Shown: in pieces, positions 13,913 through 62,391 of the stretch | Layout of the letters: every line of letters begins with the position of its first letter | How positions within the stretch are numbered: position 1 is the first letter of the stretch | The notes under the pieces: model-generated | Told to the model about the DNA's origin: nothing | The model's database searches: none | What the model saw: only the letters and a program-made list of their open reading frames with translations | Program-made: the position numbers and the translations under genes | Origin: Escherichia coli | GTDB lineage: Bacteria > Pseudomonadota > Gammaproteobacteria > Enterobacterales > Enterobacteriaceae | Length of the DNA: 64,000 nt | NCBI RefSeq assembly: GCF_024502345.1 | Contig: NZ_JALDNN010000001.1 | Direction: 5' to 3' (one strand)

Positions 13913-15130
13913 ATGCCCGAACCCGTAGCCGAACCCGCGCTAAACGGATTGCGCCTGAATTTGCGCATTGTCTCTATAGTCATGTTTAACTTCGCCAGCT
14001 ACCTCACCATCGGGTTGCCGCTCGCTGTATTACCGGGCTATGTCCATGATGTGATGGGCTTTAGCGCCTTCTGGGCAGGATTGGTTATCAGCCTGCAATA
14101 TTTCGCCACCTTGCTGAGCCGCCCTCATGCCGGACGTTACGCCGATTTGCTGGGACCCAAAAAGATTGTCGTCTTCGGTTTATGCGGCTGCTTTTTGAGC
14201 GGTCTGGGATATCTGACGGCAGGATTAACCGCCAGTCTGCCCGTCATCAGCCTGTTATTACTTTGCCTGGGACGCGTGATCCTTGGGATTGGGCAAAGTT
14301 TTGCCGGAACGGGATCGACCCTGTGGGGTGTTGGCGTGGTTGGCTCGCTGCATATCGGGCGGGTGATTTCGTGGAACGGTATTGTCACTTACGGGGCGAT
14401 GGCGATGGGTGCGCCGTTAGGCGTCGTGTTTTATCACTGGGGCGGCTTGCAGGCGTTAGCGTTAATCATTATGGGCGTGGCGCTGGTGGCCATTTTGTTG
14501 GCGCTCCCGCGTCCGACGGTAAAAGCCAGTAAAGGCAAACCGCTGCCGTTTCGCGCGGTGCTTGGGCGCGTCTGGCTGTACGGTATGGCGCTGGCACTGG
14601 CTTCCGCCGGATTTGGCGTCATCGCCACCTTTATCACGCTGTTTTATGACGCTAAAGGTTGGGACGGTGCGGCTTTCGCGCTGACGCTGTTTAGCTGTGC
14701 GTTTGTCGGTACGCGTTTGTTATTCCCTAACGGCATTAACCGTATCGGCGGCTTAAACGTAGCGATGATTTGCTTTAGCGTTGAGATAATCGGCCTGCTA
14801 CTGGTTGGCGTGGCGACTATGCCGTGGATGGCGAAAATCGGCGTCTTACTGGCGGGGGCCGGGTTTTCGCTGGTGTTCCCGGCATTGGGTGTAGTGGCGG
14901 TAAAAGCGGTTCCGCAGCAAAATCAGGGGGCGGCGCTGGCAACTTACACCGTATTTATGGATTTATCGCTTGGCGTGACTGGACCACTGGCTGGGCTGGT
15001 GATGAGCTGGGCGGGCGTACCGGTGATTTATCTGGCGGCGGCGGGACTGGTCGCAATCGCGTTATTACTGACGTGGCGATTAAAAAAACGGCCTCCGGAA
15101 CACGTCCCTGAGGCCGTCTCATCATCTTAA
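13913..15130 (+). CDS. yhhS: MFS transporter YhhS
   Basis: Track ORF starts at 13871; internal ATG at 13913 (MPEPVAEP...) gives the 405-aa K-12 length; polytopic membrane protein. Confidence 0.88.
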   Translation: MPEPVAEPALNGLRLNLRIVSIVMFNFASYLTIGLPLAVLPGYVHDVMGFSAFWAGLVISLQYFATLLSRPHAGRYADLLGPKKIVVFGLCGCFLSGLGYLTAGLTASLPVISLLLLCLGRVILGIGQSFAGTGSTLWGVGVVGSLHIGRVISWNGIVTYGAMAMGAPLGVVFYHWGGLQALALIIMGVALVAILLALPRPTVKASKGKPLPFRAVLGRVWLYGMALALASAGFGVIATFITLFYDAKGWDGAAFALTLFSCAFVGTRLLFPNGINRIGGLNVAMICFSVEIIGLLLVGVATMPWMAKIGVLLAGAGFSLVFPALGVVAVKAVPQQNQGAALATYTVFMDLSLGVTGPLAGLVMSWAGVPVIYLAAAGLVAIALLLTWRLKKRPPEHVPEAVSSS

Positions 15131-58276: not shown

Positions 58277-60742
<2,466 letters not shown>

Positions 60743-60758
60743 GTTCACCAATAAATAG

Positions 60759-60790
60759 AACGGGGCCAAAGGGTCCCGTTTTTTTCCGCC
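60759..60790 (+). terminator. Rho-independent terminator of the glg operon
   Basis: AACGGGGCC-aaa-GGGTCCCGTT stem-loop followed by TTTTTTT. Confidence 0.75.
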
Positions 60791-60858
60791 ATCATTTCGG
60801 AAAAGTGTCCAGAAGGGGCAAGGGGACTCGGGGAGTATAATTTCACCATTCAAAAAGA

Positions 60859-62376
60859 ATGGAAAGAATAATGCAAAACAGAAAATGGATTTTGTCCTCG
60901 CTGGTAATGACTTTTTTCGGCATCCCCATACTGACGCAATTTTTGGCGGCGGTTGTTGCTATGCTGGGTGTCGGACTTGCCGGTATTATTGAAGTTTGTA
61001 ATATCCTTATCACGCCAACAAGTTACCTTCTGCTCAACATTTTTATGCTGGCGCTGGGCGCATTAATGCTATTTTTCTCGGGGCGAGTATGGGCAGGCGA
61101 TAGTGCACCAGAAAAAAGAGAAATAGCCGTCTGGCGACAATGTCTTTTTTTAGTACCCGGTTTATTAATCCTGGTTGGCTGGATAATCGCGCTGCATCTG
61201 GCAGATTATCAATTTCACCAGATGGGATCGGGTTGGTTGGCTGATCTTATGCTCCCCTGGCTGGGCGTTTTGTTAGTCTCAGTAGTCGGAGGTGAGTACT
61301 GGTGGATAGTCATTATACCCGTTGGCGCGCATATCAGTTTTTCGCTGGGGTACGGCCGGCCAACCAGACATCCTTTAACCGGTACATCCGGGCTACGTTG
61401 CCGTAATTCCCTCCTGTTTATCCTTCTCATGCTTGGTTTTGTCGCTGGTTATCAGGGTTATTTATATAAACAGCTCAATCCCGGCGTCGGTGTGCGCGAA
61501 AATATTGATACCTGGGCCTGGCGACCCGATAAACTCAATAATCAACTGACACCACTGCGTGGTAAACCGCAAATTCAGTTTACGCAAAACTGGCCGCGAC
61601 TCGATGGTGCTACGGCGGCGTACCCAATTTATGCCTCTGCATTTTATGCTTTAAGCGTTATACCGGAAGATTTTCACACCAGGGAATATCTGGAGAGCTC
61701 TCGTACCCCCGATGCGTATAACAGGATTGTTAAAGGTGATGCTGATAGTATTTTTGTGGCGCAACCTTCCGGTGGGCAGAAAAAACGCGCTGAGGAATCG
61801 GGCGTTACTTTGCTGTACACGCCTTTTGCCCGTGAAGCGTTTGTTTTCATCGTCAATGCGGATAATCCGGTTAATTCCCTGACTGAACAACAGGTGCGTG
61901 ACATCTTCAGTGGTGCAATTACCAACTGGCGTACTGTTGGCGGTAACGATCAGGAGATCCAGACCTGGCAACGCCCGGAAGACTCTGGTAGCCAGACGGT
62001 GATGCAATCCCAGGTCATGAAAAATGTCCGCATGATCTCGCCGCAGGAAACAGAAGTGGCAAGTATGATGGAGGGAATGATTAAAGTCGTTGCCGAATAC
62101 CGTAATACAAACAACTCAATAGGTTACACCTTCCGTTATTACGCAACACAAATGAACGCCGATAAAAATATAAAACTGCTAGCGATTAACGGTATTGCAC
62201 CGACTGCCGAAAACATTCGCAACGGCAAATATCCCTATATCGTCGATGCCTTTATGGTAACGCGGGAAAATACGATGTCAGAGACACAAAAATTGTTGGA
62301 GTGGTTTTTAACGCCGCAGGGACAGAGTTTGGTGGAAGATGTAGGTTATGTCCCGATGTATAAGACGCTACCTTAA
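60859..62376 (+). CDS. Membrane-anchored PstS-like (PBP_like_2) substrate-binding protein; likely the intact form of the gene that survives in K-12 as the yzgL remnant
   Basis: 505 aa; about 190 aa of N-terminal TM segments, then a C-terminal phosphate-binding-protein-like domain (NSLTEQQVRDIFSGAITNWRTVGG, RPEDSGSQ). Confidence 0.7.
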   Translation: MERIMQNRKWILSSLVMTFFGIPILTQFLAAVVAMLGVGLAGIIEVCNILITPTSYLLLNIFMLALGALMLFFSGRVWAGDSAPEKREIAVWRQCLFLVPGLLILVGWIIALHLADYQFHQMGSGWLADLMLPWLGVLLVSVVGGEYWWIVIIPVGAHISFSLGYGRPTRHPLTGTSGLRCRNSLLFILLMLGFVAGYQGYLYKQLNPGVGVRENIDTWAWRPDKLNNQLTPLRGKPQIQFTQNWPRLDGATAAYPIYASAFYALSVIPEDFHTREYLESSRTPDAYNRIVKGDADSIFVAQPSGGQKKRAEESGVTLLYTPFAREAFVFIVNADNPVNSLTEQQVRDIFSGAITNWRTVGGNDQEIQTWQRPEDSGSQTVMQSQVMKNVRMISPQETEVASMMEGMIKVVAEYRNTNNSIGYTFRYYATQMNADKNIKLLAINGIAPTAENIRNGKYPYIVDAFMVTRENTMSETQKLLEWFLTPQGQSLVEDVGYVPMYKTLP

Positions 62377-62391
62377 AGCTGGATAATAAAA

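Follow-up and report, generated by a model that had tools for sequence, protein, structure and literature searches.

The stretch of Escherichia coli DNA considered here (the window, 64,000 nucleotides of contig NZ_JALDNN010000001.1 in full) carries at 60859-62376, on the plus strand, the gene for a membrane-tethered PstS-like protein, as recognised from the open reading frame (ORF), Pfam, AlphaFold2/Foldseek and the ratio of non-synonymous to synonymous substitution (dN/dS). The protein combines a polytopic membrane region with a PstS-type binding domain in which most of the anion site is kept, it is under purifying selection, and transporter genes are not linked to it. We suggest tentatively, with somewhat less than even confidence, that it is a receptor for phosphate or a phosphoryl group, tethered to the membrane and independent of a transporter, which would act in trans; the outward orientation of the binding domain, the ligand and any partner are what we infer rather than observe.

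The ORF comprises at most 505 codons and starts 116 nt past the stop codon of glgP (58295-60742), which in turn is preceded by glgA. An earlier, sequence-only reading of the window had taken the protein to have 505 residues. The ORF is real, but translation probably starts at the second ATG (60871), giving 502 residues, because PGAP starts the homologue in strain OkiPb01717 (locus L001) at the equivalent ATG and the sequence GGAAAG precedes it. Upstream of the gene, a hairpin followed by a run of U (60757-60789, plus strand; RNA fold -17.1 kcal/mol, z -2.98, 11-bp stem then UUUUUUU) looks like the terminator of the glg operon, and would part that operon from the PstS-like gene. A -10 hexamer that is perfect (TATAAT) but lacks a good -35 element (60836-60841, plus strand), read by eye from the sequence, is a candidate for the gene's own promoter. 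A consensus scan for promoters and terminators, in which a promoter needs both hexamers, reported neither the glgP terminator nor the TATAAT, and an Rfam scan of 60000-64000 returned no match. The G+C content is 0.42-0.49 over the gene as compared to 0.50-0.57 in its flanks.

Binding domain and membrane anchor

The C-terminal part of the protein, residues ~246-501 (61594-62361, plus strand), is a PstS-like two-lobed binding domain according to Pfam, profile search, Foldseek and alignment. The Pfam family PBP_like_2 (PF12849) matches residues 249-485 with an E value of 1.8e-29, covering model positions 15-265 of 267, and a profile of the family searched against PDB sequences retrieved solely PstS-type proteins, with E values down to 1e-25. 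The AlphaFold2 model, calculated from a 39-sequence alignment (predicted local distance difference test, pLDDT, 86.5; predicted template-modelling score, pTM, 0.72), has the two-lobed structure of a type II periplasmic binding protein (PBP), and its top 45 Foldseek matches in the PDB are all phosphate-binding proteins, with template-modelling (TM) scores of up to 0.79 on the target. Among these matches are 9l8j, 4gd5, 4q8r, 1twy and 4exl, together with E. coli PstS in the cryo-electron microscopy structure 9k3x of PstSCAB. The sequence-only reading had proposed about 190 residues of transmembrane helices joined to a domain of the phosphate-binding-protein type and had named a search for the PBP family as the way to verify it; both the hydrophobic helices, which span residues ~10-200, and the family match bear this out.

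The anion site was aligned with that of the phosphate-bound Clostridium protein (4q8r/4gd5) by way of the profile hidden Markov model. Its conserved motifs are G250-A-T252, T283 and R372-P-E374-D-S376-G377-S378-Q379, and in terms of E. coli PstS the first corresponds to T10, the second to S38, R372-P-E374 to R135/D137 and S376-G377-S378 to S139-G140-T141. The phosphate-ligating residues of E. coli PstS are T10, F11, S38, D56, R135, S139, G140 and T141, in the numbering of established structural work; the F11 equivalent is A253, which is conserved. Residues T252, T283, R372, E374 and S376-G377-S378 show no or almost no variation, both among 39 and among 70 homologues. With PstS of the PstSCAB importer (PBP_like_2; TIGR02136 'ptsS_2') the protein thus has in common the type II fold, the Thr of the GAT motif, a Thr at the S38 position and the pattern R-x-E/D-x-SG(S/T). 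Motifs specific to the family, AREAFVF, GYTFRYY and NGxxPT, occur in the binding domain as well, and that domain is 40-47% identical between E. coli and Bacillales.

The N-terminal polytopic membrane domain comprises residues ~10-206 (60886-61476, plus strand), as judged from hydrophobicity, AlphaFold2 and counts of lysine and arginine. Six long helices (2-47, 53-82, 87-114, 125-144, 149-169 and 176-206) precede the alpha/beta domain in the model. Averaged over the 39 homologues, the N-terminus contains 2.3 basic residues, the loop 75-94 contains 3.4 and the loop 166-183 contains 4.2, with fewer than 0.8 in each of the other loops, and the positive-inside rule predicts these three segments to be cytoplasmic. 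With the loop ahead of the last helix on the inside, the binding domain would face the periplasm or the outside. A strongly basic loop at that place is found also in the shorter members from Bacillales, Pasteurella and Bacteroidia. Paralogues that are 56-63% identical in the binding domain begin with a lipoprotein signal (MNKFTGVLLLGTALLAGC; LLAGC) or a single anchor helix, and a lipoprotein signal makes sense only for a domain that is exported. The number of membrane crossings is seven by count of hydrophobic segments, and the positive-inside rule together with the three-helix core of the Bacillales members favours five.

Residues 1-240 match no family in Pfam or NCBIfam, and the BPD_transp_1 signature was not found in them. 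A profile of the membrane domain retrieved only 163 representatives among 1.84 billion proteins; all matches of at least 450 residues, except for one divergent member (P0161), were also significant for the family-specific PBP profile. The membrane domain is poorly conserved, with a mean column identity of 31% in the proteobacterial set and not one position that reaches 85% conservation across 70 proteins from many phyla, and in Bacillales it is reduced to three helices. The anchor appears to be interchangeable between polytopic, three-helix and lipid forms, and this argues that the membrane part serves for tethering rather than for signalling or transport. The importers of the GlnPQ/OpuA type likewise have the binding domain covalently joined to a multi-helix membrane domain, but in the protein analysed here that domain is without the ABC-permease signature, its poor conservation and its three-helix form in Bacillales are unlike ABC permeases, and no ATPase gene lies nearby.

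The same features bear on the idea that the protein is a true sensor, in which closure of the binding domain would be relayed through the protein's own helices to a partner in the cytoplasm or the membrane. Signalling substrate-binding proteins (P. aeruginosa PstS with CtpL; the BvgS and EvgS kinases) use the binding domain likewise for a purpose other than feeding a transporter of their own, and a membrane-proximal receptor role is plausible here too. The sequence-only reading had pointed to a sensor or receptor on the ground that membrane-tethered binding domains are typical of sensors, and it may be added that the membrane module is found only in combination with this binding domain. Both the altered output of type III secretion upon deletion of the O-island OI-133 and the membership of a Salmonella neighbour, STM3527, in a co-regulation network linked to Salmonella pathogenicity island 2 (SPI-2), considered further below, would suit such a role. 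Unlike sensors of the BvgS/EvgS type, however, the protein has no fused kinase, chemoreceptor or GGDEF domain and no conserved signalling neighbour; Pfam domains other than PBP_like_2 were not found in it, and its predicted cytoplasmic loops have no more than ~20 residues, leaving it with no output domain. Given in addition that the membrane domain is so weakly conserved, has only three helices in Bacillales and gives way to a lipobox in close paralogues, and that a kinase or regulator is not conserved next to the gene, the relay through the helices is considered quite unlikely. The earlier proposal of a sensor or receptor is weakened by this, though still conceivable.

Gene neighbourhoods across the family

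Full-length homologues occupy the same slot, between glgP and glpD, in Salmonella and Klebsiella. Elsewhere the gene stands alone: by PPK2 in Leclercia, between ruvC and ruvA in one metagenomic genome and by TetR/MFS genes in another. A two-motif scan of 100,044 species genomes gave at least 578 loci, from taxa that include Bacillales, Clostridia, Actinomycetota, Planctomycetota, Treponema, Campylobacterota, Pasteurellaceae, Cardiobacterium and Betaproteobacteria; the family is present also in Enterobacterales and Spirochaetes. From the scan, 80 loci were fetched and the gene was recovered in 76 of them, and nine further contexts were examined separately, which makes ~90 loci altogether. Nearly all of the recovered copies have three to eight hydrophobic segments ahead of the binding domain, and a few have one.

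Genes for pstC, pstA or pstB adjoin the gene neither in the window nor in the ~90 related loci. An ABC transporter is adjacent in 0 of the 80 fetched loci and lies within 8 kb in a single one, where it is represented by pstB and pstS, and pst genes are absent from the nine contexts examined individually; the lack of linked transporter genes, noticed before from the window alone, thus holds for the family. The database name 'PstS family phosphate ABC transporter substrate-binding protein' implies transport and is contradicted by gene context in every relative examined. PstS is soluble or lipid-anchored, whereas this protein has a polytopic membrane anchor and is not encoded with pstCAB, and its gene is accessory in E. 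coli, with K-12 lacking an intact copy. In its architecture and its gene context it is a novel version of a binding protein of known kind.

Clustering of the neighbours over the 80 loci, drawn from many phyla, revealed no conserved partner, kinase, regulator or envelope-biosynthesis gene. The largest clusters were generic, namely a peptide-type ABC ATPase in 11 loci (~4 kb off) and GGDEF response regulators in 10. Among plasmid and phage proteins, the searches hit nothing but mislabelled chromosomes, chromids or canonical PstS and gave no true plasmid or phage copies; PHROGs offered for the PstS-like protein only the generic phage PstS family, and matches of the family in AFDB bear automatic names only. 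In six loci (L060, L071, L075, L090, L092 and L093, from five Bacillales genomes and one metagenome-assembled genome, MAG, of Oscillospiraceae) an XRE-type helix-turn-helix protein of ~153 residues without NCBIfam match is encoded ~14 nt upstream of the family gene and could serve that lineage as a dedicated regulator.

Tandem paralogues are 67-75% identical in the binding half as compared to 29-48% in the membrane half. Arrays of two to four members recur in unrelated phyla, as in a Helicobacteraceae MAG (L044, 1675-8598), Intestinirhabdus alba (L030, 208-3382) and Sporosarcina (L084, 7593-11899). Two Salmonella enterica loci (L008 and L009, ~600-14200) contain short PstS-like paralogues of 318 and 330 residues amid ~15 small, unannotated ORFs that run in one direction; an Ntox34 fragment of 67 residues, a HEAT-repeat protein and a DUF7674 protein are among the products, and the array resembles those of orphan toxin and immunity genes. 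NCBIfam was uninformative for ten of its small ORFs.

Proposed ligand and mode of action

In the mechanism proposed, the C-terminal PstS-type domain of an inner-membrane protein would close on a phosphate-type oxyanion in the periplasm, either free inorganic phosphate (Pi) or a terminal phosphoryl group, with T252, T283, R372/E374 and S376-G377-S378 as the ligand contacts, and the N-terminal helices would serve chiefly to keep the domain at the surface of the membrane. The function would be that of a single gene and not of a binding subunit in a dedicated ABC importer. Most likely the protein would act in trans on machinery that is encoded elsewhere, by either handing Pi to PstCA or modulating Pst/PhoR signalling. 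A phosphate-type ligand and a role in trans are favoured because the structurally characterised members of PBP_like_2 nearly all bind inorganic phosphate (PMC10443332) and most of the site is kept. Signalling of P. aeruginosa PstS to the chemoreceptor CtpL provides a precedent for action in trans (PMC8050422).

Several observations weigh against this proposal. The position of E. coli PstS D56, the specificity-determining acceptor, is taken by a near-invariant proline, P303, beside a variable Q/A/G. The protein has the PstS fold and most of the PstS anion site, yet it falls outside the curated PstS family: it scores 117.7 bits against TIGR02136 (NCBIfam PstS), for which the cut-off is 206.6, and matches profile positions 102-295 only, whereas the canonical PstS in the Sporosarcina locus scores 226.7. 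E. coli PstS belongs to the other PstS subfamily and shows only ~17% identity in the structural alignment, so that there is no obvious reason to expect the present protein to dock onto PstCA. The Pho box, searched for with up to three mismatches, gave eight matches in the window, which is not above chance, and none of them is near or upstream of the gene. Z4789, the probable counterpart in enterohaemorrhagic E. coli (EHEC), was expressed near background in the one array data set found. The phenotype of OI-133 is a single screen result for an island of three genes (Z4787-Z4789). Finally, 35 positions of the binding domain are conserved to at least 96% across 70 proteins, an invariance that is forced in part by the motifs used to collect the loci; those outside the canonical PstS site include S304, Q307, E326, N336, W357, Q371, Q379, Y414, N416, Y458 and W482, of which Q371 and Q379 fall inside the search motif. 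Conservation across phyla in excess of what a generic Pi binder needs may point to a ligand or activity of greater specificity.

From these points arises the most serious rival to the Pi receptor, namely that the protein recognises not free Pi but a phosphorylated organic or lipid-linked molecule of the envelope on the outward side of the cytoplasmic membrane. Candidate ligands would be a sugar phosphate, a phosphoglycerol or phosphoethanolamine substituent, or the head group of a polyprenyl phosphate, and the protein could be a stand-alone receptor, chaperone or enzyme. The idea deserves attention because the D56 equivalent is lost, the PstS score is below threshold and the conservation is exceptional, extending to many polar and aromatic residues beyond the canonical PstS site. 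Anchoring near the membrane is obligatory in all phyla, and a GGDF-like motif recurs in a loop that is predicted to face outward, both of which fit with a ligand at the membrane. The ligand of nearly all characterised PBP_like_2 proteins is Pi, however, neighbours in envelope biosynthesis were not found, and the motif-based search has itself imposed part of the invariance; on balance, we regard the envelope ligand as doubtful. The broadest form of the idea is a deeply conserved, pan-bacterial family that does not import phosphate but recognises, on the outward side of the cytoplasmic membrane, some phosphorylated ligand common to all bacteria, such as a lipid-linked head group or a phospho-substituent of the envelope. 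This we consider unlikely, but if true, the family would represent a hitherto unrecognised class of receptors or enzymes that work independently of a transporter, and in enteric pathogens it would feed into virulence regulation such as type III secretion.

Phosphate sensing influences the locus of enterocyte effacement. Literature searches on the locus names and the family found no functional study of the family. Deletion of OI-133 in EHEC TUV93-0 lowered type III secretion in a screen of island mutants (PMC3378721). Z4789 is listed in O-island 133 with unknown function, and Z4786 is glpD. Judging from gene order, Z4789 and Salmonella STM3528 would be the PstS-like gene; STM3527, the neighbour by gene order in Salmonella, belongs to the SPI-2-associated co-regulation network. 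By the same token OI-133 (Z4787-Z4789) of EHEC EDL933 is the O157 version of the locus, with an 89%-identical allele and a lipoprotein-type paralogue in place of the genes for proteins of 236 and 255 residues that follow in other strains. The significance of the protein lies in a family that is widespread, with a binding domain that is unusually conserved, and in the tie of its EHEC locus to type III secretion by one screen.

The glgP-glpD slot in E. coli

Some part of the gene is matched in 4800 of the 5426 complete E. coli genomes, at identities of 80 to >99%, and 3345 (~60%) carry at least 80% of it and have the gene intact. That so many genomes contain the gene and K-12 does not may explain why it has been overlooked. 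The slot between glgP and glpD is hypervariable, with at least five layouts. OkiPb01717 has glgP followed by four genes for proteins of 505, 236, 255 and 201 residues, separated by spacers of 15, 2 and 2 nt, and then glpD on the opposite strand. The three downstream genes are all present in 2278 genomes, ~800 others have only those for 255 and 201 residues, and strains of the B2 type are without the 236-residue gene. The layout of the O157 type has a second, lipoprotein-type paralogue and a membrane protein of 200 residues. Strain TA054 has three tandem PstS-like genes with small, repeat-rich secreted proteins on both sides, and in strain HH97 (L010, 3700-8900) the slot is filled with fimbrial remnants (fragments of chaperone, usher and subunit genes). 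The Auf fimbrial operon of CFT073, c4207-c4214, has locus tags in the same neighbourhood and is placed there by its tags only (PMC5956150).

The synonymous divergence (dS) between E. coli alleles, comparing the window with L011 and L012, is 0.26-0.42 as compared to 0.03-0.12 for the adjacent glgP. Such a dS speaks for alleles that are old, or have been imported, at a site of frequent recombination, and the slot behaves as a hotspot of both recombination and insertion. For the membrane half, dN/dS between the alleles comes to 0.22-0.35, and for the binding half to 0.09-0.17; the gene is therefore under purifying selection and maintained. One allele stands out. In that of OkiPb01717 (L001, 6117-7634), near-identical in other respects, the SGSQ motif, which 70/70 family members share without change, has the substitution S378R. 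The allele differs from that of the window by five non-synonymous changes and one synonymous change, all of them within the binding domain, and might have lost its function or altered its specificity.

That the gene is a decaying, non-functional relic is barely credible in the light of this analysis. The gene has been lost from K-12 and many other strains, its neighbour is disrupted here by an insertion sequence (IS), and the measured expression is low, as might be expected of a relic, but the reading frame is intact, as it is in the majority of complete E. coli genomes, the family is conserved across phyla, and the dN/dS of 0.09-0.35 across old alleles largely refutes the idea. K-12 does provide an example of such decay. 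Of the query sequence it keeps only the first 346 nt, annotated as yzgL, so that the remnant noted in the sequence-only reading is confirmed. In yzgL (L105, 1326-1620), codons 1-76 run out of frame into the last ~55 nt of the 200-residue membrane gene of the O157 type, represented in the comparison by the final gene of the cluster in L012 (7651-8253); because the 5' end of the first gene is thus fused to the 3' end of the final one, a single deletion must have removed the whole cluster.

The variability of the slot could also be understood in terms of an island for competition between bacteria, or immunity, in which the PstS-like proteins would give protection in the periplasm and would vary, within a recombination hotspot, together with ORFans of the toxin or immunity type. 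The five or more layouts, the excess of dS over that of glgP, the tandem arrays and the short Salmonella paralogues amid small ORFs with the Ntox34 fragment and the HEAT-repeat protein are consistent with this, and in Klebsiella the gene is followed by that of a YbbD-like lipoprotein, just as ybbD of K-12 follows an orphan C-terminal fragment of Rhs. The binding domain, however, is deeply conserved and not diversifying, with dN/dS well below 1, and in most taxa the gene is alone among housekeeping genes. An intact toxin gene is not found nearby, copies on true plasmids or phages are missing, and PADLOC returned no match for the four cluster proteins at E values up to 0.1. The chance that the locus is an island of this kind appears slim.

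In the strain of the window, the cluster is interrupted downstream of the PstS-like gene. Codons 1-26 of the 236-residue gene (62392-62469, plus strand) start 16 nt past the PstS-like gene and are cut off by a copy of IS903B (62470-63526, minus strand; 1057 bp with terminal inverted repeats, 100% identical to copies annotated as IS903B), whose transposase ORF lies at 62526-63494 on the minus strand. The IS is flanked by a 9-bp target duplication, ATTGCCAAC, as a direct repeat (62461-62469 and 63527-63535), and the 3' continuation of the interrupted gene (63536-64000, plus strand) runs off the end of the window. When rejoined, the two halves are 99.6% identical to the intact gene of L001. The downstream part of the cluster is probably disrupted in a polar manner in this strain. 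The IS903B copy is 100% identical to copies elsewhere in E. coli.

The two-gene unit that had been suggested from the 16-bp spacing does not hold up: the second gene is split by IS903B, the intact unit comprises four genes, and the partners, being ORFans of particular lineages, are missing from most relatives. Co-occurrence with the 236-residue gene, which had been proposed as a check, is not conserved beyond Escherichia and Klebsiella. The proteins of 236 and 255 residues have no relatives in Pfam, NCBIfam, PHROG, PADLOC or PDB sequences, and their Salmonella and Klebsiella counterparts gave nothing significant in Pfam and NCBIfam. Homologue searches gave 25 clusters for the first and 53 for the second, nearly all from Escherichia/Shigella. 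The downstream genes are lineage-restricted ORFans, largely of Escherichia, Shigella and Klebsiella, and not core partners of the PstS-like gene. BLASTP comparison of the membrane domain with the 201-residue membrane protein at the cluster end, done as a test for a duplicated module, showed no similarity.

Two minor observations concern the small proteins of the slot. The secreted paralogues that flank the tandem genes of TA054 (L007, 4987-5412 and 10636-11064) have 141 and 142 residues, are 52% identical and are built of repeats such as D-R/K-Y/N-G-N-x-x-G-T, reminiscent of YD repeats. The PGAP label 'YbbD family' for the 236-residue protein is an artefact; tblastn found no match (E up to 1) in the rhsD-ybbD region of K-12. 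The label was traced through L001 (7650-8360), L002 (9564-10109), L003 (9838-10958) and L024 (7641-8131). A Salmonella protein of 181 residues is a fusion of the first 44 residues of the 234/236-residue type with a true YbbD-like lipoprotein, and the 236-residue protein shares with it only the N-terminal head of ~45 residues; in Klebsiella, the true YbbD-like lipoprotein stands as a separate gene.

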